Made by a program: the position numbers and the translations under genes. Of a stretch of 64,000 nt of DNA, positions 25,590-52,868 are shown one piece after another (positions within the stretch are counted from its first letter, which is position 1; every line of letters starts with the position of its first letter). Under the pieces are notes generated by a model. The model was not told the DNA's origin. It searched no databases and worked only from the letters and a program-made list of their open reading frames with translations. The stretch is taken from assembly GCA_965655095.1 (NCBI GenBank), contig OZ296655.1:18724001-18788000 (forward strand), in the 5' to 3' direction. This DNA is from Haplodiscus bocki (taxonomy: Eukaryota).

Positions 25590-26460
25590 TCCCAGTCTCG
25601 GATCAGAAAACACAACATTGGACAAAAACTGGTGATATTAAAGCTGCTGATCTCTACGTGTTCAGAGGAACTTTTTGAAAGTTTTACGTAAAGAGTTCTC
25701 GAAATGAAAGCGTTCCGAGTATTTGAGCAAAAAATAGCTCTTGTTCTCAATGAACACTTCTACGTTTTCAAAGGAAGATTTTGACGAAAAATTGTTGTTT
25801 TGAAAAATTTCAAGAGCTTGGAGTTTTTCGGACTTCTAGAGAAAAAATTTTGGTAGGTGTTCTCAAAGTTAATTTTTTCGAATCCAGGGGTTTCTTTTGA
25901 ACGGAATAGTAACCTGCCTGATTTTCTCAGAAATAGACTATAAGTGTCTGGAGGAACGTATGTAGCAAGTAGCAATAAGAAACTGAAAAAAATAAGGAGT
26001 CTAGATTTTTCGGACTTCAATTCAAGTTTTTTTTTGCTGTTGGAAAACTGCACAGTATATGTCACCAGAGGAAAATTTTGAGCCTCGAAAAAAGTCTTCC
26101 ATTTTATAAGTTGTTTTTTTCTGTCCTTTTGGAATTGGACTAAAATTTTCAGCTGGTGTTGTCAAAACTATCTTCTCATTTGCCGGAGGAAGATATTGAG
26201 CTAAAGAATAATTTTATATGAAAAAATGTAGAACTCTAGCTTCTGAGAAACTGAGCAAACATTTTTCAGCTGTTTTTAACAGAACTCCATCCAGGTGCCC
26301 AGACTATCATTTTGGGAAATACATTTTTTCCTCCTGAAAGTGCTGTCTCGTAAACAAAGGACCAGCTGCGCGAAATTTTTGAAAAAGTTTAAGTATTCAT
26401 GTTTTTTTTTCGGATTTTGGGCAAAAAACGTTGATTCAGATTTGCAACATGTTTTTACTA
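25590..26460. repeat. Degenerate tandem satellite, unit roughly 110-120 bp
   Basis: Recurring ttttcggac..., tgagcaaa and ctacgtg/tcagaggaa..ttttgag modules, with gaggaa/aaggaa cores near 25665, 25771, 25950, 26068 and 26187. Confidence 0.55.
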
Positions 26461-26464
26461 CAGT

Positions 26465-27140
26465 GGACCTGGACAAAAGCAAGAAACAAGCTAAAAATAG
26501 AAACAAGCGAAAACAAAAACAAGTAAAAGCAATAAATATTCTTGTTTCGATTTGTATATACTTTTGTTATTTAATATCACCCTGGCCCCGTATTTCAAGT
26601 TCCAGTTAGACAATCTTGTTTCGTTTTGTTTATAGGTTGTTGTTCAATATCACGCGTTCCCGCATAGCTAGCGTCAATTATCAAAATTTTCGTTAATAAA
26701 AAAATCATACTTCTAAGCTACAGAAATCATAACCTTTTGAACCGCGAAGTTTCTAAAGTTCAGTCAGCACTCCCATTCTTCCTTTTGGAAACTTTCCAGT
26801 CCCAAAAATCTCATCTCTCCAAACCTTGTGAAATTTCAATTTGTACTCACTTTACTTCGGACTACTAGTTATGTAAGCGAACATTTTATTTTATCTAATA
26901 TTTCAAATTAATATTATTACAGGGATCTTTCATTCAGAACAATCCCAAAAAAAACAAACAGAATACCTATCTAAAACAAACGTCTTCGTATCCGAACTAT
27001 TGAAAAAAAATGAAAACTCAAAACTCTTGTCGCCAAATTGGCATTTTTGTCACGGTTGTTAAATTGATGACAGGAGTGGGATTGTTTTAAAAGTTTTTTC
27101 TAGTCTGGCAAGACCGTAGTTTTCCAAAAACTGCCTGAAG
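26465..27140 (+). repeat. 5' LTR (portion alignable to the 3' LTR; 5'-truncated, may extend to ~28142)
   Basis: ggacctggaca.aagcaagaaa...tttgtatata...ccagttagaca...tcatacttctaagct...aagttcagtcagcactc...ttttgtcacggttgtt is repeated at 38958-39640. Confidence 0.85.
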
Positions 27141-28353
27141 ACATTAAGATCTCTTTCCCCGGACTTGTGCTGCGCTAGCACTAGTTGGTGCTCCACTAGC
27201 GATAGCGAAAACCAATTTAGACGGTAGATAGGGCCCATAAGTAAGCAAACTCAAATGAGCACGGGCAGTTAGGCATTCGGTTTCCTTAAATGTCTCTTCA
27301 AAAACAGTGAGTTCAAACTTTTTACTAGATTTTAACCACAGCATCGAACTGAAAGTCTAATTTAACGTAGTTTCATTTATTCGTCTTTGATTTTAAACAA
27401 TTGTAACCCCAAGACTTTTTCTTTTTCTAACTTTTTCAATTTTTTTCGAGAACTTTGTCCATGCTTCATAATCATACTAACCAATATCTTTGTATGTCCT
27501 AAACCCCAACCGACCGGTTGACTCTCCGCCACGTTATTTCCGGAACAACTTCTAAAGGACACATCTCGATAGCGCATCCGTCTGTTTAAGTGCCTTTTTT
27601 TGCTTTCTCCATGTTGTTTCTCTTACTTCTGTTAGTGCTAGGACACGCCTTCATTCCCCTGCAGTTGGAAAATGTAGCTGCTAGCTGTGCCAGCACACCA
27701 TCGACATCTTCATGGTTTTCCTAGAAAGAAAAGCAAAATTTTCACTGCTTTCACCACCGCCGCTGAATGTTTGACTTTGTCTTTACCTCTTATTTGAAAA
27801 CGTCATCTGCAAGCCAGCCCCCATTAAAGTAACCGTTTTTTGCAAATTGAGAAGTTTGGACTTGTTCAACATCTCCAGGCGTACCCAGAACAAGATTATT
27901 GACTGACACCGTACTATTCATTTCTGTCTTTGAATCTCTTGCAACGCCACGATAGCCAGCACACAACTAACATTCTCAGCCATAAAAATTCTAGCATAAA
28001 ACAGCCTTCGCGCGTCCATCCGAAATCTTTGTTCTGTTTTTGATTCGCTAAAGAGTGGGTGGAAAACTTACACAGTATTGATGCAAAATCTTAGAATTTT
28101 GTACCCCTGGGTGTGGAATAACAGAAGTCTAACGGTGAAACATTTTGAAGTTCGAATCAAACTCTTCATAAAAATTGGGAATCAAGGTATTTTTCTAATT
28201 CTTTCGTCCCCCACGACGTTGTCTGTGGGAACTTTCGTTCTTTTAGCATCACCATTAACCAATCTACCATAGAGCCTACTTGTGATCACCTGCTATCACT
28301 GCCATGTGGTTCAATACAGATTTCCTGTCAAGTATCACCCCTAAAACAACAAA

Positions 28354-30168
28354 ATGCCCTTCTACGACCATCCTGAATTCTTCCTACACCAAAAGTTTGA
28401 AGAAGTTCACTCCCATTATCATTTTTCGGGCCCAACAAACACGTTGAAGTACACTTCAAAACAGTTGACAAGTACTATTGCAAAAACACAATCGGAAATT
28501 TTTTACAAGCGTTGAGCCAAAATTTGAGCGTTCAAGCTTACAATTTTGCTTACATCAACAAAATTGTCTGGAACGGTAATGGAGACCCCATCAAATTTTT
28601 TGCCTATAATTTCCGAGAGTTTCCTTCTCATGATTTTCACCGCGAAATTTTTCCACATACTCCCAATTGGTTACGTCTTTATTCGTGCTTAGCTGATTAC
28701 AGGCATTTGTATAAAGACAAACTTGTAAACGAGCACATGTTTGGAGAGCTAAAAGACCAACTTTCTATTAATCAAACTCAAAATCACAGTAAAAACTACG
28801 CCAGAATGACTGACGTTTACAGTTAAATGGAAACCTTGGCTGACCAATCAGCAGCAGGAAAGGGAAATTGAGCCGCTCCAACTCAGAAAAATGCTTCTTT
28901 TGGATCTCACTAGACCCGATAAGTCAACACTGGAACCTCAATGGGACCACTTTTCTCCACAATTCTTGGACCTGAAGCTAAGCCATTTCCACCCATGGTT
29001 GTTTATCCCGGATCATTTGCCAGCAGCACAGTCACAATTCCTTCCTGCCTCAAGCCTGAATAGCTTACCGGTTCCGGAGACTTCAAGGATTACCTCCAGG
29101 AGTTCAATACTACAGCGAAGCTGTCCAGCTGGTGCTCGTTGAAACGGGATCATCGTTTCTAAAATTGTGCTCTACGATTACTAGAAAACAACCTACTTTT
29201 TTTCACATTTTTGTCCCCCAAACAGCAAAACCTTTACAACCTGCTCGTCGATGTTTTCACGCAGAACTACAAAACTGAAGTCGATACTTTAAAAGCACGA
29301 TTAAAAGCTGCAAAACACCGACCGGGACAAGATATCGCCACGTTCCGACGTAGCATCCCCACTCTAACAGGACGCGCTTGTCGTGCGCACCCTCATCTAA
29401 TTGATGAAAATGTTCACACTGGTTTCATTGAGGGTTTAAAAAACTCCATATTGCGCTGGGAATTGAGAAAAACAAAACCGTCGACGGACGATGAAACCTT
29501 AGCTTGGATATTGAGCTCGACTCATTCCTGGCTTTGGAGCGTCAAAACAAGGCTCCACTTTTTATCCAGTAACCAATATATTTAACCAAGTCGCAGCAAA
29601 CAGTTCTCAGAAAAACACCGTCGACGAACTGCTCCTAACACTACGTGACGAAATCAAAAATTTGAAGTCCCTGAATATTCGGAGAGAAGCTTCTGGTGAT
29701 CGAGACCGTCAACAGTACAGCTCGAACGACCAAAATTGAAACAAGACTGATTCCAGCGATCGAAGACGAAAACGATGCAACTCTAACGGAAGAAATGGAC
29801 TCCAAGAAATTTGTGATAACGGGAAACGTCGTAACTCGAGAAACCGAAATGGTAGCTCAAATTCTCAGTCAGTTTGATTCTAAGAGGACCGCGTTCGTAA
29901 ACAGCAAGACAATCGATCACTGAACAGCGACCAGCGACATTTCCGCAACAGCCCACCACAGAACAACAACGGGACATCGAGGCAGACCAAGAACAATTTA
30001 AGCAACAGAAATTCTACTGTTAGCAACTTCAGAAGCCATAATCAGGAATGTTGGCACTGTATGGGCAAGAACCATGCCTCTAATGAACGTAAGACTTGTT
30101 TCAACTGCCTTCGAGTTGGCCATTTCCGACGAGAGTGCTTAGCCCCAAGAGCCAACAAAAAAAACTGA
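28354..30168 (+). pseudogene. gag: Gypsy Gag with long N-terminal extension, capsid domain and two zinc knuckles
   Basis: LKPE*LTGSGDFKDYLQEFNTTAKLSSW...ALRL...LKARLKAAKHRPGQDIATF...FIEGL...LRWELRKTKP. Knuckles CWHCMGKNHASNER (last C lost) and CFNCLRVGHFRREC at ~30048-30140. Confidence 0.88.
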
Positions 30169-30199
30169 AACTGTCATCGCGAAAGGGCTTTGGCGCAGA

Positions 30200-33100
30200 T
30201 GTGAACGCCTCATGTACATAAAAAGCTGTTGCACTGAATTCAATACTTAAGTCTCGTAGTGTCTTCGTAGAATTGACGACTTTTCACAGAATTGTGGAAG
30301 CAGTGTGCAACTCTGGAGCAAGTGTGTCTTTTCTGAGCCCTGAGATATACAGTGACCTGAAAAAGACTCAATAGTTTGCTCTAGAAACTACCACGCGGCA
30401 TCTGAGAGCTGCCAATGGCCTCTCAATGGCCATGGGAGAATCATAAAAGTCCCTGTTCACCTGGGAAACAAGCTTTTTCACAATGAAATTCGGGTGTCAT
30501 AAAACTCACAAGCGGATTGGTTTTTGGGGTTGGACTTTCTGGAAGGTCAATAGTGTGACCCATTGTTTTCAAGAAGGGAGCTGATATTGGCTCAACCCAA
30601 TCCGTTCACTTTTACCATAAAAATTTGCATTTGATAGCGATGCCGTGTTCCGACTTATTGTCACCGAAACCGTTCAAGTGCCAGCAGGCTATGCAAAACT
30701 TTTTTAAGCTCTTTTTCTAAATTGAAGGTAACCAACTTTCCATCTAAACGGTGGCTTTGAGCCATTCGAAAAAATTTAGGCCATTCAGGACGTCTCAATC
30801 CCAAATATATCAGTTGAATTTTCTCGAGACGCAATCTCCATAGTTTTCAATAACACGACAAGACCCGACATTAATATGTTCAAAAAGATTTATTTGGGTT
30901 CCTCACTAGTTGTAATTGGAGACTGTTTGAACAACAATAGCACAGCGTGAGGCAATGAAAACATCTCATGCAAGCAACAAGCCCACTCCCAGTCAAAAAG
31001 GAAACAAGAAATAACAATTTGCAAACGTTGGTAAACTCAGTTGATTCCGGCATCAAAGCGAAGTACTCCCGACAGTTCACAGATCTAGTTCAAGAATTTG
31101 ATAGCGTCTTCTCGTCCACTGAATGAGTTTTGGGTCATTGCCATGCCACTGCGCATCGCATCGAGATCTAGCCCGGATCAAACCCAGTCAAAATTCCGAA
31201 TAGACTAATGCCTCTCCACTACAAAGACGATATTCAATCAAAAAATGACGTGTTCCTGGAAAAGGACTTGATATCGCCTTGTCATAGCCCTTATAGTTCC
31301 TCCAGCCATGTTAGTGCCAAACAAGAAAGGAAAACTTGACCTCGTCATTGGCTACCACCAACCTAGAAGAAAACAGTCAAATCTAGTCGGCCGATGCCAA
31401 CTATTGAAGAGACCTCTGATAAATTGGAAAGCGGCACGTACTTTTCAACAATAGATATTTCTACTGGATTGTATCAGGTGCCATTGGACAAGGAAATTCA
31501 AGATTACACTGGCTTCAGCACACCCGTCGGCTCCCTTAAGTGGCTTCGAAGGCCAGGGGGCCTCACAGGTAGCCCTAATATCTTCCACAGCCCCATAGAA
31601 CATTTTTTTCAAGTCTCACAAGGAAGACTTGTGTTTGATATCTTAATGACTGTATCAATTTTGTAAAGACCGCGGAAGGGCACATCTCTTGTCTAATCCA
31701 AGTTTTCCAACGTTTTTCCGAGGCAAATCTCAAAATAAGTTCATCAAAAGGTTCATTTTTTCAATGCAAAGTTCAGTTCCTTGGCCGCGTTGTGAGTGAG
31801 AATGGCTTCCAAGTGGATGCCGACAAAATCACAGCTGTTCTTGAATTCCCAGTGCCAAAAAACCAACTTAAATGAAGTCTTTTTTAGGTTTGGCATCCTA
31901 CTACCGACGTTATGTCAAGGTTTTGCTTCCATTGTCCGACCTTTACACAAAGCTAGTGAAACGTCATGCGCCTTTCAGTGGACAGACGAAGCGCACATTG
32001 CGTTCGATTTTTAGAAGACAAGTTTGACTACCACTCCATTTTTGGCATTTCCTTCGCTCCAAAAACCAAGCATCCTACACACAGACGCAATCCATATTGC
32101 TATGGGAGCGGTGTTGGTAGAAGAGCATGATAGTTGCGAACGCATCAACTGCTATTTTCCAAAGGTACTTTCGGAATCTCAAACCAACTCGGCAACACGC
32201 TGTGGAAGTTTGTGATTTGTGACCTTTATGCGACACTTTCGCCACTACTTTGTCAAGCGTCTTTTCACAGTAGTCACAGACTATCGCGCACTGCCATGGC
32301 TGCACAGTTTCGAGGGACCAGATGGCATAACAACGCGTTGGCTGAAAAAGTTAGCTCCTTTCGACTACGCAGTGAAACACCGACCGGGAAAGTTAATTGG
32401 TCATGCAGATGGTCTATTCAATATCCCTCCCGCGATGAATACAGTAGCAGAATTTTTCCCAGAATCTGATCCACAGTTTTGTTCTGGTGTTCACGCTCCA
32501 CGCAACTCACTCGACGTCAGCCATGATACCGATCATAGACACGTTACCTGACGAACAAAGAAACCCAGATCATCTTTCTGTTCCTGCAAAAAATTCTCGA
32601 TAGGACGAAGTAAATTGAAACTAGCGAGAAGTGGTAGAAAACATCTTTGACTCCAAAGATTTAATAGCCCACTGTGTTAGCTGACTTTAAAATGTCAGCC
32701 AGTATTCCCAGACAAATTCGTCGCAACTACTTTTTACCTACCCCATTATTCTTGACTACACTCTCCATCTGGCCCCCGTGGTTATCCGACTCAAAGCGGT
32801 ACATTTACCAACTCACAACCAAGCAAAATTTCTTCATTAAGCACACATTTGGTACCCCGCGGGCCTCTCTGGGGCGTTTGTGCGGCCACGCCAATCAAAA
32901 TGACGTCCAATGAATCAACTTGCCATGCATTGGATCGGGTCTTGATAAACTTGATTGGAGCAAGGTGCGATAATTGACAGATGAGACGTTTCGAACCTCC
33001 CTTGTCCAGATAAAAGTTTTTACGAAACCCGGCGTCAAGTATGACGACAACACTTTTGAATAGCTGAGCGACAGCCACGCCTTGTTGAAAGCACAAGAAG

Positions 33101-34911
33101 CAGACTAGGTTCTGCATCGCCTTCGAAAATTGGTTCGGGAGAGACATCTCCCTAAGAACAACGAAATGCAGGTACTCCAGCGTTTGGGTTGGCAGCCTCA
33201 TAACCGATCACAGGAGTTGTACCTGAAAGAAAACGTTTTGTGCCGAAAATTTGAGTCCCTCGACGGTAGTCAGTCGTACTTCTATGAGATCATACCTCGG
33301 TCCCTAGTTCCTCAAGTTCTGATTTTATTACATAGTTCACCGGCAGCAGGTCACCTGGGCGCGCACAAAGTGAGCAACATAGTTCGCCAGCGTTAATAGT
33401 GGCCTGGATTCTAGGAAGATGTTAAAAAGTTCCATCGATGTTGTGATGTGTGCCAAAAACGATCAAGTCCGCCGAAGACGTTTTGCCATTCTTTAATTGA
33501 CTGGAAAATCAGTTACCTTTTTAATCACATTGATTTGATTTTCAAGGACAGATTCTTAGTTTTAACGGTATTCAGTTTGTCATTTTGATTCGCGATCACT
33601 TCACGAAACGCTGGGAAGTGATACCGTTCCCAGATCAACAGGCACTAACCACTGCAAACGCGCTTTTGGAACACTGGTTTTGAAGACTTGGCTGTCACTA
33701 TAGCATTCACACTGACCAATAGCGAAAATTTGAATCCCAGCTCTTTCAACAGTTGATGAGACTGTTTCGAATTGAAAAATGCACACAACCTTCTTCCATC
33801 CTCAGTCCAATTCAGTCATCGAAGGCTTGAACCGCACGTTCTTGATTATGCCCACCAAGAGCATTGACAAAAAGCAAGCCCAGTGGTCGTACTTTTTACC
33901 TTTCGTCTTGATGACATATCGTTCCTCGGTGCATGAGTCCACCGGTTATACTATCAATTTCCTTGCACTCAGTCATCAGTTCTTCTTTCTTCTCCATGTG
34001 ATGTACCCTTCCCCAGAAACCAACAAGCCAACGGACGTAAACAAACATGTGATGCAAAAGCAAGCTGTTTTCCACACAATTTTCAAGCCTAATTAATGTA
34101 ACACTACCACTCAACAGAAACGTAGATATGCTTTATAAAACAAAAACGTTCAAGGTCCAACATTTCGCGAAGGAGTTTACATCCTGTTTCATTATACCGT
34201 TACAGTAATAGGGGAAAGTCTCAAACTCTTCAATCCCTGGAGAGCTTTTTGCAGGAGGCTGAAATGTATCATAGATGTGAACTACAAAAATGAAGATGTG
34301 AGCACTCAAAAACAATTGAGTGATCCCAATGGTCGGTTGAAGCTTTATCACGGACAACCTCTTAGTCCACCTAGCATACCCGATTGTCAACCTGCCAACA
34401 GCAAAGTCCTCACACGGCCACCTTTGAGGCCCATTAATCTTGATTGTTGTGTTGTAACCTTGCCGCCCCAGTCTTTCTCAGCGTGCCGCGAACACGCCTA
34501 ACACCTTTCCCAACACACCGTTCACCACCATCGAGCCCTGCTGTTTCGGTGACTTCTCCTTTACTTCCGTCAATGACTCCCAGGTCATTCCCCGATTCCT
34601 TCAATGCTTCCACAATCCCGTCAGATTCAGCGTCCCCACCCAATCCTTTCTCTTATAAACCAACTCTAGTTCCGGACTTTGATCAGCAACCGCACTTTCC
34701 CGAGCGTACGCCCTCTTCTCGATCATATGTTGTCCCCTCCCCAGTTGACACCATCATCCAGAAGGCTGCGCGGCAACTTCAAGAGGCTAATCAAATGCTA
34801 CCTCTTCCTCCCGCACATTCTCCACGGCAAAACCTTACCCACCAACGCAAGGCGGAGCCACTCTACAAGGTTCGTCTACCCGGCGATCTCACTAACCTTC
34901 TGTCTTTATAG
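30200..34911 (+). pseudogene. pol: Gypsy Pol: protease, RT, RNase H, macrodomain, integrase, Pro/Ser-rich tail
   Basis: PR VCNSGAS (DSGA-like). RT SPYSS..., MPTIEE..YFSTIDISTGLYQV..TGFSTP, VQFLG, FLGLASYYRRY. RH LHTDA..IAMGAVL, HFRHYF..FTVVTDYRALPWL, HRPGK..GHADGL. INT LHSSPAAGHLG...CDVCQ, HPQSNSVIEGLNRT, YRSSVHESTGYT. Confidence 0.95.
32628..33030 (+). pseudogene. TARG1/OARD1/DarG-type (Poa1p-like) macrodomain within Pol
   Basis: EVVENIFDSKDLIAHCVS/ADFKMSASIPRQIRRNY...RYIYQLTTKQNFFIKHTFGTPRASLGRLCGHANQNDVQ*INLPCIGSGLDKLDWSKVR*LTDETF...IKVF follows the TARG1 pattern AHCIS.D..MGAGIA / RYIYYLITK / SMPRIGCGLDRLQW. Confidence 0.88.
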
Positions 34912-37230
34912 AAATCCAGGAAACCGAAACGCCATTGTTTTTTTGTAACACGCATCAGCATTCTGTCAAAGCCAGTGGTCAGTACCGAGTTATTTCCCGG
35001 TAATCTGCTTCTTCAAGAGCCTTCATTTCGCAAGACGTCTACAGCCCCGTTCTCACTGCTTCTTTCCTACGCCCTGTAATCTCGCAGATGTGCCGTTCGC
35101 CACCCATTGGAGCAATCCTGTGGACAAACGACTGTTTAGGAAAGGTGCCGAGTTTGTTTTTAAGTACCAAGCAGTGATGTCAGAGAGTGAGAGCAGGGTT
35201 CGTGTGTTTTCACCGTTCCTCAAGATTTCCGAGATCAATTTGACCAACGCTTATACAATTCTTCAAACACGAGGCCATACCGACTCAATGACTGGCAGGG
35301 CTACAGTCAAACTGTCGATCAGAGCGCATGGGTAACTTATATGACCAATTTTTTGACCAGCTGGATCAGAAATTTTCCCTGATACAAAAGAAGGTCAAAG
35401 CTGCACACACATCAAAATTGCTCGGTGGAGTTGGCAGCGTCCTTCTTTCTATCTCCCGCTAAACCTAAGCATAGCACTGATCGTAGTGAACGTGCAATGG
35501 GACTAACAGCAGCGGCCAAAAGACTGTTTCTTGGAAATCCACTCAAAAACGCTGCATGTTCAGCAATCTCCATTTTTAATCTTCTCACCGACAGCAAGGA
35601 GCTATAATCAAATACTGACCACGTCATGGGATCTTAGAAACAATTTCAAGTTGTCTTGAAAAAATTGCTGACAAGGAACACTGAGAAAGTTTTACTCTGG
35701 GAAATGAAATTAAACAAACAATGGAAAATGTACAGAAAAAACAACGGAATTAGTTGGCTGTCAATTGAGTTCCTTCAAACAGAGCTCTTTGAAATGAAAT
35801 GCGTAATTGCTGCATTGTCCGTACGCAATGTTGACCTCAGAGAGATTATGATTTTCAAGCAACAGATCTTTGACTAGGTGGATCGTTTGGGAATCCTGTA
35901 TGTACACATCAAAAGCTACCGAGCCGCTTTTTATGTATACAAAATTGCGCCCTTTTTCACAATTTCGTCACTTGCAGCTGGCTTTCCTTCGCAACAGTCA
36001 CTTCAGCCCTCAATTTTTCTTCCCTTCTCAGTTGGCTACCATAGTGAACGATCTCGCCAAAGACAAGATCATGAGAGTCCAAAACCTTTCCATGCGATTC
36101 GTGTCAGCCACGAAGCCATTTAATTTGACGTTAAATTGGTCTTAGAAATCGCCCTTCTCTCTCAAGCTATCTTCGTTGTCCTCGAATTTCTGATGAACTC
36201 CAAGGAGCCCATCAATGTCCATCAAGCAACCCCCATTTACCAACCTAACCAGGCTGGAGATACGGCTTCCTTGTACCAGTTTCCGAAAGTTTTTTTGCTG
36301 CCTCCCCTGACAACTCCCTCCCATTCCGCTGAACTGAGTGCTTCTAGCTTTCATCAAAGCTCAGGAAACGACCGTATTAAATTTTGTCGTCAATGTTTTT
36401 CCACTACGACTGACGAAACACATCTTTGTCTGCCTTCCTTGTATCATAAATATAACATTCTTCGCCCTTCGTCTTTGTAGAATTGGGTCCGTTCTCCTAC
36501 TGGAGGCCCCTCGAGCCTTCTTTTTAGTTGATGGCATGTACCCTAAAATTCAAATGAAATATTATAGTGGTACTGGTTCCCCTGTTTTTACCTTATCTCG
36601 TATAGCTTGCCTCGTCCGAACCAGCTGCCCCAGCACATTCTCGTTCAACCAAGGCGATTGGAAATCGTCCCTGATATCAATTTTTGCAAGACCATTCCGC
36701 AGCCTTTTGGTTGCCTCCACTCGGCTCATACCATCCCCCGAACAGGTATTTAGACATGATCCCGAGGTTACTCACAAATTTCACACGTTTTCTGTTGCTG
36801 AAGCCTGTCAATTCGTCCTCAGTAGTGTCCGATTTGAATGACCTGAATTTTTTAACCTTGGAATCATGGCTAGTGAAACGCTTGCTGACATCACTCGACC
36901 TATTGCACAGAACTACTCATCTATCTCTTCAGCTACATCAGCCGCTCTGTCATCCTACCTCCCAACCGGCACAGGAGTCTGTTTCTTCTCATCTCCATCA
37001 CCCTCTCCATCCTGACGTTTTTCATCAGTTTCACGCTTTTTTGCTGACAATGGCGGCGGTTCTTCGTGCACCCAAACGTTTCTTCAGTCCCACCTCAGGT
37101 CGACATTTGCAAATTGTGGACGGCACTCCTTCCACCGCCAAGGATTTTCTTTTCCATACCTTTCTGTTTGAAATTCCAGGTTTTTCAGGCACTTGCGCAG
37201 GCAGCCCTACAACAAAAACCCTCTGAAACT
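34912..37230 (+). pseudogene. env: Envelope-like class I fusion glycoprotein (F-protein-like), disrupted
   Basis: RSER (RxxR) followed by a hydrophobic Ala/Gly segment AMGLTAAA..LFLGNPLKNAACSAISIFNL, a helical heptad region, a Cys-rich region (IKFCRQCFSTTTDETHLCLPSLY...LRLCRIGSVLL.EAPRAFFLVDGMY...ACLVRTSCPST), and a hydrophobic SILTFFISFTLFC near 37010-37046. It lies between pol and the 3' LTR. Confidence 0.78.
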
Positions 37231-37871
37231 CTCAATGACGCTCTTTCTTCAACGCTCCCCAATGAGAACCCCCTTCTTCTATTAAACTTTCTAACCCTAG
37301 TCCTTTCTTGAATCGTGTGTTCCTTTCTGGTAGTGCTCTTATTTACACTGAAACCTCTAGTTGAAAACGTCACCTTTCTAAACTCCTTCCTCATCAACCC
37401 TTTTCTCTACTTCTTGCCAGCAGCTTTTTTATGCCCTTCCGACGCGTTTTCGCGTTCTCGATGCTCAGCGTTGCCCACCCACTGGTTCCCCTTACCTGCG
37501 TTCCCAGCCGGTTGCCGTGCCATTCATGCAGACGGTTTTCAGCACTTCAACCCACATTTTTCCGTGTTCACCTCAGAGTCCTTATGACGATTTCCCTTCC
37601 TGACATACTTCTCCGTATGAAAATTGCATTACTTGCTCTTTTTTATGTCCTATTTACTATTAATTTGTTGAAGGTATTTTGTCGGTGTGGTCGTTCTTTG
37701 TTTCGAGTCCTCCTTCAGCTTCTTCAAACGTCAGCCTGCGGTTCGCCAGGATGTCCTCACGAGTTCTGGTCGCGTTCACGCTGTTGCCGTAAACGACCAC
37801 GCTTCTTAGTTGAAACCCTCCGATGCCATGTCACTTACATTTCCCCTCAGCCTGACACCGTCTAATCACAG

Positions 37872-38831
37872 AATGTCAACACACCTAATCGACCGTTCAA
37901 GCGTTGCCTTCGCCAAATCGGGTTGTTCCCACCTCCTACTGCAGACTGCCCAGATTCTGTTGACCTGCCCTCCAGCAACTGTTTTTGTCCTGAAACTCTT
38001 CCTCCTTCTGTGTTACCGACGTCGAGGTGATTTCTATGCAGACTGTTGCAGAGGTTATGGACGTGTCTGTCCAGGCGGACATCGACGGAACAACAGCTCA
38101 GAACGCATGGGCTAATCTTACTAAGGACTTTTCGTCAGTTAACCAACTTGACACAGCTTTACAGGAAGCCCATCGGGGAACCGAAGTCTAATATGACTTG
38201 TACGTTGAATCTGACAAAGTCTTAACTGCTGCTCGTGCCTCCATTGAAAAGCTGATCACGGAACTTCGACAGCTGCGCGCTTCCTTGCAAGACCTAAAAA
38301 CTGCTCATATCAGTCTCATTAAAGATTGTCTCGATAAACTTGAGGAGATGAGCTCTCTGCGGACTCGGATGAGCCAGGCAGACAACTTACAGATCAAAGT
38401 GCTGAGCAAAATGCTGCACACAAGTCTTCTACCCCTGCCCACTGACCTGTCTGCTGCTTCCACTCCAGATGATACTCTCTATCATTGTCTCTGTTGTAAT
38501 CCCTCAGCGGACACAGCCACAAAAACCCACCATGCCAACACCTTCATACGCCGCGTGCACCCTGACAAGACCGGTTCCTAGAAAAATCCGCCGGTTGGTG
38601 CTGCGTCCTTCCTCATACCCTTCCTCACCAACATTAAAAAAGTTCTCAGAAAAAAACCTTTCGCGCAGTCTATGACCACTGTAGGTTGACCATTTTGCAG
38701 GAGCTACTCGACGATCCTCTGTGTTGCCTCTTGTGCACGCCTACTTATGCGAACGGGTTTCCAAGTAAGCAGGGACGTTGCGAGTATCCCCATTTTTTAG
38801 GCTCATTTCCAGCTCCTGAATGGCTCCGTTA
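37872..38831 (+). pseudogene. Accessory ORF4: coiled coil plus DnaJ-type J-domain
   Basis: Heptad helix SIEKLITELRQLRASLQDLKTAH...LDKLEEMSSL, then DTLYHCLCCNPSADTATKTHHANTFIRRVHPDKTGS*...FLTNIKKVL. After a frameshift in an A-run it continues FRAVYDHC. Confidence 0.72.
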
Positions 38832-38881
38832 GTTCCCTCCGTCAGCGTTCTTGCCTCATAGGTACCTTTTCAGGTTCCACC

Positions 38882-38901
38882 GGGGGGGGGGGGGGGGGGG
38901 G
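38882..38901 (+). other. Polypurine tract (G20)
   Basis: Run of G immediately 5' of the 3' LTR. Confidence 0.75.
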
Positions 38902-39713
38902 AAGCAAACATTGCTGATTGAACGGAAGCAGTCTCAAGTGGAGGGAGTCAATAAAACGGACCTGGACAGAAGCAAGAAATCAGCTAAAACAGAAACAAGC
39001 AAACACAAAAACAAGTAAAAACAAAAAGCATTTTTGTTTCAATTTGTATATACCTTTGTTATTTAATTTCACCTCGGCCCCGTGTTTCAAGTGCCAGTTA
39101 GACATTTTGGTTTCGTTTTGTTCATAATTTGTTGTTCAATATCAGCCGTCTCTGCATAGATAGCATCAATTATCTGTTATTCTATGTTCTTGAAATCTTT
39201 ACGGTAGCATTCTTGACAAAAGTTCTCATACTTGTTCCCCGCACCCAGTAACTTGAAAATAATTGTTTAAACAAGAAAGATCATACTTCTAAGCTGGAAA
39301 AACCATAGCCATTGGAACAACGAAGTTTGTGAAGTTCAGTCAGCACTCTCATCTTTTTTTGTAAACCTTCTTCTTCCTATCAAATAAATCTCATCTCCTC
39401 AACTCTTGTGAAGTTTCAATTTGTACTCTCCGTCGAACTAGTAATAATATAAGACAACAATATTATTTTACGTATGTTTTCAATTCAACCTTAAAACGCA
39501 GATATTTTATTTAAAACAATCTCAAGTGAAAAATAAAGAAAACCTATCTAAAACAACCATCCTGGGATCCAAAATATTGAAAAAATTGAAAACTCAAAAT
39601 TCTTCTTGCCAAGTTGGAATTTTTGTCACGGTTGTTGAATTACCATGCCTCATGGTTTCAAAATTTAAGAAACAGGGGATATTTAGTTCCACTTGCCACA
39701 AGACCTGCCTGAA
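38902..39713 (+). repeat. 3' LTR
   Basis: Starts right after the poly-G tract. It is a direct repeat of 26465-27140 with an extra ~80 bp at ~39175-39255. Confidence 0.85.
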
Positions 39714-40830: not shown

Positions 40831-41833
40831 AAACAACATCTACCTATAACATACTTATGTTTAGTGATGTACACATAACCATAATCGTAATCGGTGGAAT
40901 AATTTTTCTCAGACATAACAACATATAATTCCACATTTATGTGAACGTAGAAAAAAAGAAAAAATTACACCGTCGCTTTTATGTTCCACTGAACAACCAC
41001 TACACTTGCACATTCCAATGAGCGTCAACTTGTTTCACTTTTTTTAAAGAAATTTTTTGACGCTTAATGGAATAATGTGGAATTTATGAAATTGTCCAGT
41101 GAGTTTTTGTCTTTGCGTGACTGAAAATACATGGTGACTGCTACATAGTTTTTTAAGGATATCTCCGTGAATATTTACCCGATTAATGTCAAATAAAAAC
41201 TGGTGTGAACTTAATTGAATTAAGAAGTTTGTTTCGAGAAAAAAGTTGAAAAAAATTGAACTTACCATCTTAACAGGGCAAAAACTAGACTTACCATCTT
41301 ACCATGGTATACTCAGAGCTTGTCGGTCTCAAATAAAAACGAAAACTCATAATTTATTTAGTCTACCCTGAAAGTTTGAGCTTCATATCTATGATACATT
41401 TTGAGACAACCAATTTTGAAAAAGTTCAAAGGGTTAAAACATAAATAAAAACCACTCAAGTGGAAATTTTTTTCATTTTCCGTTTAGACTTTCCCACGGT
41501 CGCTTAAACATGTGAAAGTTACGAAATCAACGAAGTTTTGAGCTACAGAAAAGTTTAATATATAGTTGAAAACGTCTTGAAAAAAGCTGTTCAATGATAG
41601 TTTTTTTCGAAAACGTCGGCTGAATTCATTACCATCGAAATCCTGAATGTAACCTCAAACATGCTTTGTCAATGAAACATTTTTAGTAGCAGTGGAGCAT
41701 TATATATCTTTAGAAAGGTCTTGAAAAGGGTAATTTAATGCTAATGTTTTCAAAATTTTTTACCATATCATTTTTCATCAATATGAATTTCTTTTTTAAT
41801 CATCCAATTACGAATTGCAAAATGAAAAAGATT

Positions 41834-42085
41834 TTATAAATCAAAACAATGAGTTTTTACATATTCGGGATTTTGAGATAGTATTTTAAAAATTTGTCTA
41901 TGCATTGTTGGTATAGGAAATTTTAGATAATAACGTATATTTACATTTGATAGATTACTATAAATTTTTATTGTCAGTTTATTTATTTGATTAAATATAA
42001 AACTTTTTGTCGAGGAGTTTTTAGTTTTCTTTTTTTCATTCAAGTTCGTGAATTTGTCAGCTATTGTTAAATTAAATATATCCAT
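41834..42085 (-). pseudogene. Polinton accessory ORF downstream of pPolB (copy A)
   Basis: 83 aa ORF duplicated at 48820-49071; function unknown. Confidence 0.45.
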
Positions 42086-42358
42086 ATTACCATTATTTTT
42101 AAGTTGAATATCCTATACACATTTATATTGAAATGTATGAAAATATTTTTTTATAACAGTCTCTAAGACAAATATCAATTATAGAATCTTTTTTCTGAAC
42201 GAGTGGTTTAATAACTTCATATTCTTTGACAACGGTTAACTGGTTTTCGTTCATTATAACATTCATGTATTGAAGAGGAATATATTTTAAAAAAACTTTT
42301 CAACAAAACATAATAAAATTGAACTTGTATTTAGATAGTTTTTTATAAATAAACCATC

Positions 42359-45250
42359 CTATTCTTCAAAATAAAGAAGCATATGACCAAATTCATTAGG
42401 AGCTTCTCGTTTTAATAAATATAAATAGCTTCAATTTCTATAATTTGATTTTTACATTTTGTATATAAATTTTTATCCTTACATTCATTACAAAATCTCA
42501 TTTTCGTTGGTTTAACAACTCCATTATTAAATGATTTTTTCCAACTTTTAGGTAACCTAGCTGATATTTTTTTGCCTTCTATCATTTCAAATATTGAGAT
42601 CGATTAAATAATCGTTTACTATCGTTGAAGTCTTTGAAGGTCATGTGTTGTTGATTAATACCAATTTCGTAAATAGTGAAACAATATTTTGTGTCAGGAG
42701 CAAGGAATAAACCGTAAAAGATGCTTCCTGTTTCGTATTCTTTTTTACCATGGCATAACTTCTTACCAACTAAATTTACTTTACCTAACACATCCCAATG
42801 TTTTTTTTCTATATACACACTATCCGTATCTCCATAATAAATACTATTATTATAAAGTCCGTTGATTTCTCTGATAAAATTATTCAATATTCGTTCACTT
42901 TTACTTAATATAAAAGCCCGTATTCGATTTGGTATTATATTTTTCATATCATTGTCACCATCTAAACCATCGTCTTTCTAAAATTTCAATATAAAGATTC
43001 CATTTGGTGTTTTTCAATAACCTAACACATTTTCATCGTACTCTGTTCCCATCCAATGTTGTGATTTACAATTATATAATTCATCTATGTCTCTGCGTAT
43101 TTGAACTCCGTAAAGACTGTTCATCATTAGTTTAACTAAACTTTTCATCAAAAAGTATTTTCGTCTTTAAATTTTTTTCGTAAAGCAAACATTTTTTCTA
43201 TAACTTTTGTAAAAGGCGATATTCTAAAGATTTCTCAAAAAATAACTCCTCCGTAAATTCGAATTACTTTACCTCCAACTTTCGCAATTTCTTGACTATC
43301 AACTGATGTTAATGTGTCATTAATTTTTTTATTTTTCATGCGATTAACTTCGATATTTTTATCTTTTTCTTTAACTGGTAAAACTTGAAATATAAGATCA
43401 GGAGGATTGTAATGTTTTAGTTTTAATATAGCAGATTCATTACCATCTTGGTTAAAAATTTGATTGTTAAAAGCTTTCACATAAACATTGTTCATATGAT
43501 GTTTAATAGCAAATCCAGTTTCTTTTTTAGGACACAGCGAGTTTTCATCCCACATAGCAGAAGGATATAAGGAGGTAGCATCAAAGTCCATCATAAAATC
43601 AGAAAGATTCGGTTTTTTTATTTTTTTGTGTATTGGTAGTTTTTTGAGTTTGTACTTGATATAATTATTCCTTACTTTTTTGTTGATATCTCTATAGTCA
43701 TCAAATTAGGATTCATATTCGTCTTCTATTTTCTTTCTATGTTCATTTGAATATTCAAAAAGTTTATCCAAATCTCGCATGTATTGCCATTAATGTTAAT
43801 GTTAAAATCTTGTGACATAATATTAGATACTTCATCTGAATTAAATGAGCTATAATATTGATGTAAAGCTGCACGTCTACCAACTTTTATGCTTTGTCTT
43901 ACAAAATGAGACAGAAATTCATCGTTATAAGTATAGATTGGTTCACCGTTTTCATCTCTTAAACTAATAAAATATTTATTCGCTAAAGAAGGTAGTGTTA
44001 AACTATTTTTCATACCAACTCCTGTTAATTACTCCATTCCCTTTGAATCTCTAGCATGAGCGAAAGCAGTTGATAAAACGCCGTTCTTAAGATAGGGTAA
44101 CCATTCACTTTCTTTCATTTCCCAAGTGTCCTCATTAATTTCATCATGTTTTAATTCTTTTTAGGTTGATCTTTCTTGTAATTCATATTTTTTTCGTTTT
44201 TTCTAAGAATCTTTACTATATAATATGCCGCATCTGAAATGAACATACTGAGGGATCTTTTTGTTTTGCTCTACATTACCGTTGAATATTTTAAGAGATA
44301 CAAATCCTGATCCGTTTTTAATCAAACTAACAACTGTTCTCCATTGAGGTAATCTATTAAAAAAACATAACTATCAAATCCTGATCATTTATGGGCAAGT
44401 AAGTAGAAACTATATTTAACAATGTTTTTTTAATTCTTTCGGTCCTCCTTTGAATTGTAAAACGTAATCTAACATTTCGTTAATATTATATAATCCTTTA
44501 AAAACATTACAATCTTTCTTACATTTAGTCATTTTCTTTTTCTGATATATCTCGATTGTATTCACCTGAAATTTTACTTAGTTAATGTATACAATTAGGA
44601 TAAGGAACACATTTTAAATTATTAAAAGTTTCTGTATCATAAACAACCATGTTAGTTATTTGAGATTGAACTTGTTTAGGTTTGTTTTCGTATTTAATAA
44701 AACTTTTAACATGTTTATCAGATATAACATTATCAACAACTTTAAAATTTGGATATAACTCGTTTTCTATTGCCTTATTAAAAATAATATTGTTTGATTT
44801 CCGAATTAAGCAGAAATGATTATTATTTATTTTTATTGCTATATTTCTTTCTGGAATATGTGTAGGCCATACTTCTTTACCGTTAAAATAACCAATGTTG
44901 ATATTGTATTTTCTACAGACTGGTTGACTTCTAGCAGATGCCAGTACATTAGATCTTCTTTGTTCAATTAAACTAAAAGTTAAAAAAAGTTCTGTATAAT
45001 CTTTACCAGTTAGATAAATGATACACTTTTTATAAAACGATTATCACTTGTAGGAATACAACAGTTGTTAACTAAATATTCAACAATGTCTTATCTGAAA
45101 TCCGTACCTCTACCATATTCAGATCTGTTTACTTATTGAATTCAGATGTGTTTATTTTAAACAGCTATTCTGTAAAAAGAACATCTTCACTATCGTAACC
45201 ACCTTTATCTATAGCATTAAAACAAGTTTCGAAATCATCGACATTTTCAA
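42359..45250 (-). pseudogene. pPolB of Polinton #2, copy A
   Basis: Exo I VVYDTETF, Exo III PYLKNG, motif A DFDATSLYPSAM, motif B LVKLMMNSLYG, motif C YYGDTDS. Confidence 0.95.
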
Positions 45251-45254
45251 ACCT

Positions 45255-45865
45255 ATTTAAAAAAAACTTTTTTCGAAAAAAACTCCTAAAACCTCGAATA
45301 AGAAAACACATTTAATCGAAACAGATCGAGAAAAGGATTTTTTTATAAATATTTTTTTCAAAAATTCCCATAAAACAAAAACATTAAACATTATTCTAGA
45401 AATTCTTAGAAGCTGTTTTTGCAGAATGTTTTAACCGTACCCTGAAAGATTTTCTTAAACCACCTGTTTTTGAACCAGGTGATGCTAACTGGATTGATGA
45501 ATTAGCCACAATAACAAAACAGTATAATAATTGAGTACAAACTTCTACTAAGTTAAATCCACTACAAGCTTCTTTGAAAACGAACGAAAGATTTGTTTAT
45601 CAAAATTTATTAGACGAACGAAAGAAAATAGAACCAAAGTTTCATGTAAACAACCGCGTTCGAGTTGGTGCTTTGCGAAAAACGTTCTCAAAATCGGAGA
45701 CGACAAGTAGGACTTATAAATTAAATAAAACTAGTGAAGTTATTAATGATACACTACCGAGTTACGGCATTGATAATTTACCAGAAAAATATAACGAAGC
45801 CTCATTGAAAAAGACAGAATAAACAATGAAAGAGAATGATACCATCATGAAAAAGTTAAACTTAA
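45255..45865 (+). pseudogene. 5'-truncated integrase, copy A
   Basis: HLIETDREKDF, AVFAECFNRTLKDFLK, NWIDEL..ITKQYNN, RKTFSKSETT. Confidence 0.88.
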
Positions 45866-47148
45866 ATTAAGTCAAATTGTCTTTGACCATCACTACTGAC
45901 AGACACTATATTATTCGTTGATAAAAGAGCATATCCGATTAAAAATGTTGCTGCTGGAACGGCTGGTCTGAAATCAAATCTTACTTTTATAAGTTGAGCA
46001 GAAATATAATCTTGATGATGACTTATATCAAAAACATATACATTATAACCAGGGTTACCATCTGGATAAAGATTAGAAGTTACAAAATCTTTTTGCGTAA
46101 TATAGGTTTTTGAAGCATTACCTTTATCTAGATGTCTAAAACAGGAAACAATTTCTCCATATGCTTGTGAATATTTTTCAAAAACATAACTACAATTTTT
46201 TCCTGCATCCGAAAGCTTTACGTTGCCAATGACACATTGAGCATTTACTACACTTGGTTTACGAAATGTATCATTTTTCTGATGTTGTTGATTAATTTGA
46301 TCTCTTTGCATAAATCCTACTATTACATAAAATGGTATATCAACACCATCTCCAAAGCCCAGCTCAAATGTCCAATCATTTTCAGTAGTTACATCTTTCA
46401 TATAAGATGATCTTTTAACATATGACAATTCAGTTGGAGCTTTAGATACAATATGTCCTAACATTAAATTTTGATTTGACATACCCATAATATACTGCGG
46501 AAAGTACCAACTGAAGTCTTCTATAATAACTCTTCCAGCCAAAGCAAGATTTGCTTCAATGTCAATTCCTGCCCGATGATTTAATACAAGATTATTACTT
46601 TTTCTTTGAAATGTTAGCTTATAACCCAAACCATGAGTGCAATTATCTTGCTGTTCTGCAAAACCAAAAACATCTTTTCAATAAAGTCTAACATGGTTAT
46701 TTCATTCAGTTGTTTTGTTATTAGTCAATTCTCTTTCTCGAACTTCATTACTAGTGCGAAAATCGATTGATAAATCGTCACTATCTCTGCTACTTGATAA
46801 CATTTTGTACATTAAACAAATAACAGGAGCATTGTCTACATCCTCTATTTCCTTTCCACTTGAGCTTGTCAGTCTGTATTTATTAAATAAGGCAGTAGGT
46901 CCTAGGTTAACAAACTTTATATGATCATTATCTGCAGATCGAGCATGCGGACCAGCTTTATGACTTATATTAAAATCTAAATCAAGATTACTATCTTTCA
47001 ATGAAACAGCACTATAATCTCTAAGTCTATCAATAAAAACATGACTCTTGTCTCCATTTACAAGAGTTAACGAAGGTGGAGTATATCTAATATAATCACA
47101 TTTGAGAGTGGGTCTTTAACAGCAAGTTTTTGTGATATGTTAAACATT
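45862..47148 (-). pseudogene. Major capsid protein, copy A
   Basis: LKCDYIRYTPPSL...FVNLGPTALFNKYRLTSSSGKEIE...FGFAEQQDNCTHGLGYKLT...IPFYVIVGFMQRD...YSQAYGEI...GYNVYVFDI...SSDGQRQFDLI. Confidence 0.85.
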
Positions 47149-47237
47149 TATAAAAGTAAAAAAACTTCTGTTCTGTTATGTTATATAAGATTAAAATTTT
47201 TAAAGATTTTTTTGTGCTGAGTTGGATTCATGCATTT

Positions 47238-47990
47238 TTATTCTAATAAATTATCACTTATAGCAACCATTTCTTCCTTATTTGTCTTTGAATACTTTCC
47301 AGTTTGTTTCTCCTTCAATAATAATCCTAATCTATCACATAATTCATTTGGATTTTCTGAAAGGAAAAAGGTTTTTAACCCAGATGCGAGTAGAGCTACT
47401 TTAATATAATAGATTTTCCAGACGTTTTCATCTCTAAGACTTTCAACTTTTGCATGTATATCAAAATGCATTTTATCCAAGAAATTAGTAAATTATTTCG
47501 CATCAAGTGAATGTGTTTTATTAAAATCGTAATCAGTTATCATTGAAAGAATATCTCCTTGTAACGTGAAAACTACACCACTGGCTGTAAAATTTAGCTT
47601 ATCATCGTATAAGGCACTTTTTTTCTATCCAGTTTGTAATCATTCCGGTCACCACTATCAAGATCGTCTAACAATCGAAATTAACTCGTATTTTTTGGTA
47701 CTAAGAATTTTGCTATAAGTCTAATCAAACTCTAATAAATTACTTCACTTTTATTCATCAACTCCAAAGTTTCAACGTTTTTATTTGATTCATCCAACTT
47801 CTCATTTGCTTTTATATTGGATTTGGTCTCCTCAAGTAATTTTTGATTTGTGTCTGTTAATATTTTTGTAATCCTTTCGAATATTTTTTTTATATCATAA
47901 CGAAAACCTTGTTTACCTAATTTTTCAACTAATCTAATTTGTTTTACTTTTAACTTGAGATCATCTAATTCTTCCAAGTTTTTCAATTCA
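47238..47990 (-). pseudogene. Polinton conserved uncharacterised protein, copy A
   Basis: ORFs 47732-47986 and 47238-47480 (FLSENPNELCDRLGLLLKEKQTG). Homologous to 14891-15580. Confidence 0.65.
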
Positions 47991-48004
47991 TCTTTACTTT
48001 TAAT

Positions 48005-48287
48005 TCAAACTATCATATTTATATCAGTAAACCAGAAAGGTTTCGTCTCAGGAGTACATCCATTAGAAGTATTTTTTTTACCATTTCTGATAGTATATAT
48101 ACCCTCTCCTATTTTAGCAAATCTGTTTTTTTGTAAAAAATCATAATCATTTGACCAAGCTTTACGACAGAGTTTTTTCCATGTTTCTAAATTCATATCT
48201 AATCCTGCTCTATCATGAATTAATAGTATGATATCTCTTAGAGTTTGCATAAATGAAATTTTTATAGTAGAATTATTACGAATAGGG
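48005..48287 (-). pseudogene. C-terminal fragment of packaging ATPase, cut by the tandem junction
   Basis: IRNNSTIKISFMQTLRD...AGLDMNLETWKKLCRKAWSNDYDFL, homologous to the C-terminus of 15590-16150. Confidence 0.8.
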
Positions 48288-48819
48288 TACCATGGTATAC
48301 TCGAAGCTTGTCGGTCTCAATTAAAAACTAAATCTCAAAATTTAATTAGTCTACCCTGAAAGTTTGAGCTTCATATCTATCATAGATTTTGAGACAACCA
48401 ATTTTGAAAAAGTTCAAAGGGTTAAAACGTAAATAAAAACCACTCAAGTGGAAATTTTTTCATTTTCCGTTTAGACTTTCCCACGGTCGCTTAAACATGT
48501 GAAAGTTACGAAATCAACGAAGTTTTGAGCTACAGAAAAGTTTAATATATAGTTGAAAACGTCTTGAAAAAAGCTGTTCAATGATAGTTTTTTCGAAAAC
48601 GTCGGCTGGATTCATTACCATCGAAATCCTGAATGTAACCTCAAACATGCTTTGTCAATGAAACATTTTTAGTAGCAGTGGAGCATTATATATCTTTAGA
48701 AAGGTCTTGAAAAGGGTAATTTAATGCTAATGTTTTCAAAATTTTTTACCATATCATTTTTCATCAATATGAATTTCTTTTTTAATCATCCAATTACGAA
48801 TTGCAAAATGAAAAAGATT

Positions 48820-49071
48820 TTATAAATCAAAACAATGAGTTTTTACATATTCGGGATTTTGAGATAGTATTTTAAAAATTTGTGTATGCATTGTTGGTAT
48901 AGGAAATTTTAGATTATAACGTATATTTACATTTGATAGATTACTATAAATTTTTATTGTCAGTTTATTTATTTGATTAAATATAAAACTTTTTGTCGAG
49001 GAGTTTTTAGTTTTCTTTTTTTCATTCAACTTCGTGAATTTGTCAGCTATTGTTAAATTAAATATATCCAT
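48820..49071 (-). pseudogene. Polinton accessory ORF (copy B)
   Basis: Nearly identical to 41834-42085. Confidence 0.45.
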
Positions 49072-49346
49072 ATTACCATTATTTTTAAGTTGAATATCCT
49101 ATACACATTTATATTGAAATGTATGAAAATATTTTTTTATAACAGTCTCTAAGACAAATATCAATTATAGAATCTTTTTTCTGAACGAGTGGTTTAATAA
49201 CTTCATATTCTTTGACAACGGTTAACTGGTTTTCGTTCATTATAACATTCATGTATTGAAGAGGAATATTTTTTTAAAAAAATATTTTCAATAAAACATA
49301 TCAAAATTGAACTTGTATTTAGATAGTTTATTATAAATAAACCATC

Positions 49347-52255: not shown

Positions 52256-52257
52256 TT

Positions 52258-52868
52258 TTTAAATAAAAAACTCTTTCGAACAAACTCCTAAAACTCCAAA
52301 AAGAAAACCACATTTAATCGAAACAGATCAAGACAAGGATTTTTTTTATAATTATTTTTTTCAAAATTTCCCAAATAACAAAAACATTAAACATTATTCT
52401 AGAAATTCTTAGAAGCTGTTTTTGCAGAACGTTTTAACCGTACCCTGAAAGATTTTCTTAAACCACCTGTTTTTGAACCAGGTGATGCTAACTGGATTGA
52501 TGAATTAGCCACAATAACAAAACAGTATAATAATTGAGTACAAACTTCTACTAAGTTAAATCCACTACAAGCTTCTTTGAAAACGAACGAAAGATTTGTT
52601 TATCAAAATTTATTAGACGAACGAAAGAAAATAGAACCAAAGTTTCATGTAAACAACCGCGTTCGAGTTGGTGCTTTGCGAAAAACGTTCTCAAAATCGG
52701 AGACGACAAGTAGGACTTATAAATTAAATAAAACTAGTGAAGTTATTAATGATACACTACCGAGTTACGGCATTGATAATTTACCAGAAAAATATAACGA
52801 AGCCTCATTGAAAAAGACAGAATAAACAATGAAAGAGAATGATACCATCATGAAAAAGTTAAACTTAA
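52258..52868 (+). pseudogene. 5'-truncated integrase, copy B
   Basis: KRKPHLIETDQDKDF, AVFAERFNRTLKD. The 52577 ORF is identical in translation to the 45574 ORF. Confidence 0.88.

Follow-up and report, generated by a model that had tools for sequence, protein, structure and literature searches.

The window, by which we mean the whole 64,000-nucleotide stretch of Haplodiscus bocki DNA analysed here (1.5-Gb genome), contains at 26460–39640 a single decayed Ty3/gypsy LTR element (Table 1). The proteins of an open sister family align collinearly with its gag, pol and env and with a fourth gene downstream of env, ORF4 (tblastn), and the features of the Metaviridae are present, namely LTRs, a primer-binding site, a polypurine tract (PPT) and the PR-RT-RH-IN order. 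This copy is dead. A DNA search for its family gave 18 matches including the window copy, among which no young copy was seen; the others are only 69–80% identical, and the family is therefore old. The elements that carry ORF4 form a large, recently active group of env-bearing Ty3/gypsy elements, the young ones having LTRs that are 99–100% identical. The env of these relatives matches Baculo_F (E 1.8e-7 and 2.1e-4; above cut-off in locus L049), with one furin-type RxR/KR site in each of the six envs examined. A Macro domain lies between RNase H and integrase (~32640–33000 in the window), as it also does in the pol of loci L099, L053 and L055; PF01661 scored above cut-off in three of the four pols scanned.

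Table 1. Features of the decayed element, in window coordinates
Feature	Position	Strand	Remarks
5′ LTR	26460..27063	+	ends approximate; 81% identical to 3′ LTR across 596 aligned nt
Predicted splice donor AT^GTAAG	26871..26879	+	~190 nt before 5′ LTR end; would give AU of ORF4 start codon
Primer-binding site	27064..27081	+	slightly decayed; presumably tRNA-Leu type; intact TGGTGACAGGAGTGGGAT form directly after 5′ LTR in young copies
gag, broken	28938..30168	+	tblastn with sister gag; zf-CCHC zinc knuckle near 30090
pol, broken	30105..34929	+	PR-RT-RNase H-Macro-integrase; domain order taken from intact relatives
F-type env, broken	35084..37154	+	tblastn span; 49–62% to sister env
ORF4 splice acceptor position	37690..37707	+	damaged here; aligned to sister family
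ORF4, whole gene, pseudogenised	37707..38832	+	four collinear tblastn blocks against open sister ORF4
KOW/Tudor/SH3-like N-terminal beta barrel	37738..37930	+	sister-domain model, pLDDT 86
Coiled coil, ~100 aa	38129..38432	+	helix 131–232 of sister model, mapped onto window
J-domain	38474..38710	+	HPD at 38558–38566
Cys tail (H/C)C...CxxC, predicted zinc site	38671..38829	+	motif in 10/10 families compared
Likely polypurine tract	38936..38947	+	adjoins 3′ LTR
3′ LTR	38953..39640	+	ends approximate

Within ORF4, the motifs that the original prediction had named lie where it placed them. LYHCLCCNPSA...HPDK is in frame at 38192–38581, and NIKKVL follows in the same frame beyond the TAG at 38579. 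At the A-run at 38647–38659 the frame changes, matching the shift placed near 38650, and RAVYDHC is read in the new one. The gene is longer than was thought: instead of starting at 38198 it begins ~490 nt further upstream, and it carries more breaks, with stops at 37807, 38189 and 38579 and frame changes near 37800, at 38000–38020 and at the A-run. The PPT also had to be moved, as the G-run at 38882–38901 was rejected in favour of the purine tract that adjoins the 3′ LTR. Just 5′ of the PPT is a short hairpin (e.g. ATTGCG/CGCAAT, with a 3–4 nt loop), seen in families A, B, C, D, E, F, G, H and S and damaged in the window copy. The same type of hairpin follows ORF4 in L152, a locus from another dataset discussed below, and both sides of the stem are changed in family E and in L152.

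The window sequence has no PF00226 match even at E≤1, so the reading of these motifs as a J-domain was made by eye; likewise, just one of ten open pieces from the window family gave a match to Pfam DnaJ, and this was sub-threshold. The identification nonetheless holds. A profile built on five intact ORF4s from other families scores the window frame at 54 bits (iE 5.6e-18), and that frame is 51% identical over 151 aa to the open sister-family ORF4, the model of which is a J fold. Hence the similarity is more than chance and the J-domain is real, although the window copy alone cannot show it. Of 15 distinct copies of the dead window family that align well, 4 keep the HPD and 11 have lost it, a count that leaves out L016 (the L015 copy), L017 (site uncovered) and L018 (distant, low score). 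Pairwise dN/dS in this family is 0.38–0.89, a much weaker constraint than in most young pairs, and this fits decay after insertion.

The expectation that the HPD would be conserved among copies, which fails in the dead family, is borne out in the young ones. Scoring the best 150 of 666 candidates in a genome search with PF00226 placed all of them above cut-off and many at identical scores, so element copies inflate the number of DnaJ genes counted in this genome. Around 14 of these matches, ten of the 10-kb stretches contained an HPD ORF downstream of pol or of an env-type ORF, or HPD ORFs in tandem; L057 and L064 proved to be fragments, and L063 a host gene of the TM2/J type. A window-family protein with NLD instead of HPD, used as query, returned 856 candidates, including the sister family (56%), whose frame is open over 362 codons. 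The HPD that this query lacks is present in 23 of 26 sister-family loci; it is also present in 25 of 26 other loci and in 10 of 11 loci of family A, the last a biased figure in that these loci were chosen by Pfam. Because sampling by env avoids selection on the J-domain, a distant env was also used as query, with the best 150 of 2852 candidates scored; the 30 highest rows were examined, together with 20 lower ones picked by hand. ORF4 lies behind env in all 50 of these loci, as expected of the genuine element gene that had been proposed, and a narrow pattern reads HPD in 40 of them, one further locus ending before the J-domain.

Across families, the HPD is found in nine of nine at 25–68% ORF4 identity, and in a five-family alignment H, P and D are invariant while most neighbouring residues vary. 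Within young families ORF4 is under purifying selection, with dN/dS of 0.05–0.11 in five of six pairs and 0.41 in the remaining pair (family B). Families A, B, C, D and E exceed the PF00226 gathering score of 27.8 (33–53 bits); S, F and H lie far below it (15–18 bits, E 0.003–0.03). Furthermore, a profile search of 1.84 billion representatives found relatives, one of which, P0146, matches the Haplodiscus bocki genome at only 21–34%. The P0146 locus, L152 (JAAUYE010209536.1), contains an env that is 46–50% identical to those described here, then a barrel, coil, HPD and Cys tail, so at least one further dataset has env and ORF4 in this order. H, P and D are kept there at 22–26% identity.

In a tree, 15 element J-domains lie on one side of a branch and 14 host J-domains on the other (support 100/98), a separation that is consistent with a single old capture, with no donor or root established. 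That ORF4 is a captured host gene or a neighbouring host DnaJ was rejected: it lies inside LTRs, is multi-copy and has its own side of the tree. An assembly artefact was likewise rejected, as contigs from other runs cover the sister element and a related locus occurs in another dataset. We regard it as almost certain that ORF4 is a real, selected and apparently unreported J-domain accessory gene. Two unusual arrangements were encountered among the loci. One is a tandem array at L061 (C10, ~69.55–69.58 Mb) with a 2.7-kb period, each unit of which contains a 5′-truncated family D ORF4; the other is a family A element at L049/L141 that is apparently a head-to-tail repeat sharing one LTR.

Structure prediction suggests that ORF4 is built, in order, from a KOW/Tudor-like barrel, a coiled coil, a J-domain and a Cys tail. 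For the sister ORF4, AF2 (36 rows; pLDDT 80.8, pTM 0.42) gives a beta barrel and, after a disordered linker rich in Pro, a helix of 100 residues followed by the J-domain and a tail, which agrees with the earlier placement of a coiled coil before the J-domain and a Cys-containing tail after it. The J-domain helices are modelled at pLDDT 87–93 and have the J fold that had been predicted. In a fold search (VIA) the best row for this domain had Z 8.1 (rmsd 3.8, 83 aa), and eight of the nine top rows were named J-domain proteins. The top Foldseek match is also a J-domain, but at E 0.025. PDB J-domains match the clade profile at E 1e-13, aided by its more canonical A and B rows. The tail motif, (H/C)CG...CxxC, is a predicted zinc site. 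No membrane segment is evident in ORF4, where no hydrophobic segment scores above 1.21, and a simple pattern finds a basic NLS-like cluster in just two of ten ORF4s.

It is worth considering whether this J fold still does what J folds do. The 14 residues before the HPD (helix II) contain 3–4 K/R in A, B, D, E and L152 and 1–2 in S, F, G, H and C, compared with 4–7 in eight host J-proteins. Judged by these counts, the basic face of helix II appears to be eroded in the window's clade, which counts against a plain co-chaperone. It is conceivable that, at least in this clade, stimulation of Hsp70 has been lost and the fold is retained to scaffold the zinc tail or to act as a decoy for Hsp70; the weak Pfam scores of S, F, G and H point the same way; we consider this improbable in view of the invariance of H, P and D in five families and their persistence in a locus as distant as L152. 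ORF4 probably does engage Hsp70.

Modelled alone, the sister barrel finds its best fold matches in Spt5/NusG KOW domains (Z 7.6, rmsd 2.2, 60 aa). KOW domains fill the top four rows (Z 7.1–7.6), with Tudor and BAH within 1 Z and SH3 rows close; a Z of 7.6 is within the range that common folds reach, the Foldseek E is just 0.05, and a sequence search of the barrel against PDB gave nothing significant. We call it only KOW/Tudor/SH3-like because the Tudor and BAH rows nearly tie with KOW. The presence of Tudor readers among these matches would suit a counter-defence gene, one that acts against a host complex such as the small-RNA loading machinery or a chromatin silencer and does so in trans on all copies and not on its own LTR. 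Such a role would also suit the faster divergence of ORF4 between families (25–68% identity, as against 49–99% for env and 72–100% for RT) and the company of the Macro domain in pol and, in some elements, a fifth ORF. However, selection within families is purifying and pairwise rates show no sign of positive selection. In addition, a typical Tudor cage needs more aromatic residues than the two nearly invariant ones of the barrel. We find counter-defence rather unlikely.

The manner in which ORF4 is likely expressed bears on its role. Most families have no Met ahead of the conserved barrel. Instead, a conserved splice acceptor heads ORF4, and the earlier intronless reading is probably wrong. 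Specifically, a pyrimidine-rich YAG acceptor in phase 2 lies 46–91 nt upstream of the barrel motif in all 24 loci examined, followed by G in 23, whereas acceptor-like sites in other phases occur in only some of them; the acceptor is intact in seven of the ten other window-family copies aligned there. At the other end, six families (S, E, B, F, G, H) have an AT^GT(A/G)AG donor that precedes the LTR end by 136–215 nt, and the 5′ LTR of the window has one as well. With a seventh family, in which the donor is 296 nt past the LTR end, it is present in seven of nine families. It is absent in A and D, and these have a Met of their own, at +1 in A (an ATG right behind the acceptor) and at +15 in D. 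Among the GT(A/G)AG sites in eight leaders, 10 of 17 are preceded by AT against a background of 0.07; since the families are related, the P value of this excess is not strict. Splicing would thus join an LTR exon ending in AU to an ORF4 exon starting with G and in doing so build the start codon, and from these conserved signals we predict that ORF4 is expressed from a spliced RNA.

Counting against this scheme, the equivalent acceptor in L152 is followed by an in-frame stop. No processed (spliced and re-inserted) copy was found among the best 40 of 113 and the best 40 of 121 candidates in two families. Four sequencing runs are DNA-like, with the flank covered and the element at many times the flank depth; none of the joints listed for them connects the LTR with ORF4, which speaks neither for nor against splicing. 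Contigs assembled from DNA also contain joints at L099:5036–5037, just before the env ORF, from 3621 and from 4387, with short sides of 23–25 nt; these are possibly deleted or spliced-and-reinserted copies.

Comparison of closely related elements is informative regarding function. Families A and B are 99–100% identical from U5 through env, yet their ORF4s are only 56% alike. Identity falls to 50–72% at the ORF4 acceptor and recovers only near the LTR end, such that the divergent block spans the acceptor through U3/R. Families F and H likewise share near-identical Gag-Pol-Env cores with ORF4s 68% alike, the change being more gradual than in A and B; these two are the only exchanges seen. It follows from the first that one Gag-Pol-Env works with ORF4s that are 56% alike, and that the promoter, donor and acceptor travel along with ORF4.

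These exchanges speak against ORF4 being a dedicated co-chaperone of the particle that brings Hsp70 to Gag, to Env tails or to the RNP for assembly, priming or uncoating. That idea does have points in its favour: ORF4 accompanies env in all 50 loci sampled by env, phylogenies built for RT-RH, env and ORF4 across nine families recover the same supported groups, and a KOW-like barrel might recognise the genomic RNA, perhaps at the conserved pre-PPT hairpin. Nonetheless, most Ty3/gypsy elements manage with the J-proteins of the host, and here near-identical cores run with ORF4s only 56% (A/B) or 68% (F/H) alike; we hold it unlikely, though a little less so than counter-defence. The roles originally suggested, namely particle assembly or uncoating and interference with small-RNA loading, are possible but rank below a role in the element's own expression, because the exchange took in both ORF4 and U3 and left Gag and Env 99% identical. 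Here too there is a caveat: ORF4 and U3 are neighbours, and one crossover could transfer both with no functional link between them. Since adjacency alone could explain the exchange, it is moderate evidence for the own-expression role.

Our preferred explanation, to which we assign a probability of roughly 0.45, is that the product of this conserved fourth gene, translated from a spliced RNA, recruits host Hsp70 to the promoter or nascent RNA of its own element and keeps that element expressed. The barrel, the zinc tail or both would find the target, the coiled coil would oligomerise ORF4, and the J-domain would trigger Hsp70 to remodel the bound complex in the manner of SV40 T antigen. As a result, a silencing or pausing complex might be released, or the RNP might be remodelled for export. 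The broader proposition, that ORF4 acts on the transcription or RNA of its own element, is a function we infer at slightly less than even odds. A more elaborate version, which we offer as speculation more likely wrong than right, is that these elements form a "complex" invertebrate retrovirus lineage paralleling the foamy viruses and lentiviruses, in which a spliced, LTR-matched trans-activator mimics the Spt5 KOW domain and its captured J-domain directs Hsp70 to polymerase that is paused or silenced on the element's own LTR. The pair of ORF4 and U3 would then be traded as a matched cassette, alongside the Macro domain and the fifth gene.

Retroelements borrow host chaperones, and in the literature searched, from which most subscription papers and Repbase annotations fell outside the scope, we found no report of a J-domain in any LTR element. 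Within that scope, an LTR element that encodes an Hsp70 handle of its own is apparently unreported. That the J-domain is kept across an env-bearing clade and in young copies points to an Hsp70-dependent step that limits the spread of retroelements and could be tested with one small protein. ORF4 also extends accessory-gene complexity to the invertebrate Metaviridae. In this last respect a comparison with foamy viruses is natural: their tas and bet genes, like ORF4, lie between env and the 3′ LTR and regulate the expression of their own element, although these viruses belong to the Retroviridae and the genes have no J-domain.

The elements described here are members of the env-bearing Ty3/gypsy elements, and they share the LTR-gag-pol-env layout and F-type env with the errantiviruses (Chary and Hayashi, PMC13524379; Senti et al., PMC12992720). 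They differ in having one or, in some cases, two further ORFs downstream of env, and in the Macro domain of their pol. The main text of PMC13524379 uses neither the word DnaJ nor J-domain, and DnaJ is likewise absent from seven of its supplements. In the springer subclade, the env start codon is made by splicing from an AU-dinucleotide exon (as described in the section of PMC12992720 that treats it); the elements of this study seem to use the AU^G device for ORF4. The CERV protein of the C. elegans element Cer1 is an accessory protein that is made from a spliced mRNA and acts on the element's own RNA, and it too has coiled-coil and Cys-rich parts (PMC10309623). The domains that the relevant part of that paper gives for it are H, M and G-protein-like ones, with no J-domain, and the likeness to ORF4 carries no claim of homology.

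With respect to the J-domain, a close parallel is found in the polyomavirus T antigens, in which a virus-encoded HPD J-domain is joined to targeting domains, as in ORF4; there the J-domain is N-terminal and the virus is a DNA virus, whereas in ORF4 it comes after the barrel and coil (PMC7356129, in the portion that covers these antigens). Baculovirus Bjdp and the DnaJs of giant viruses are also J-domains of DNA viruses, with fold matches to single domains only (E≥0.005). An internal J-domain tied to a targeting module, as in ORF4, occurs in class C (type III) J-proteins, including plant DNAJ1/2 with SUVH1/3 and SILENZIO, and such proteins tune transcription at methylated loci (PMC6711733 and PMC8616336, in the passages concerned). 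These are host genes, and the element J-domains, with no identifiable donor, lie apart from the host ones. By analogy, ORF4 most likely resembles CERV or the accessory genes of foamy viruses in where it lies and how it is expressed, and SV40 T antigen in its chemistry.

Some further observations concern neighbouring sequences. An additional ORF of ~200 aa with a basic C-terminus, ORF5, lies between ORF4 and the 3′ LTR in families F, G and H (L136:226–1017, L135:341–955, L134:7–918) and is absent in the window family and its sister. By eye we take it to be SGNH/GDSL-like; none of seven copies had a Pfam match, and a PDB sequence search gave nothing significant. GDSL ORFs have been described in rotifer LTR elements (PMC5408684, in its account of those elements). 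Elsewhere in the window, 41300–52640 contains an AT-rich 7-kb direct duplication with copies 75–99% alike. Long inverted repeats (~75%) at 3560–4446 and 21687–22447 surround ~17 kb in which the AT skew switches sign mid-way, and the whole is possibly a large DNA transposon.
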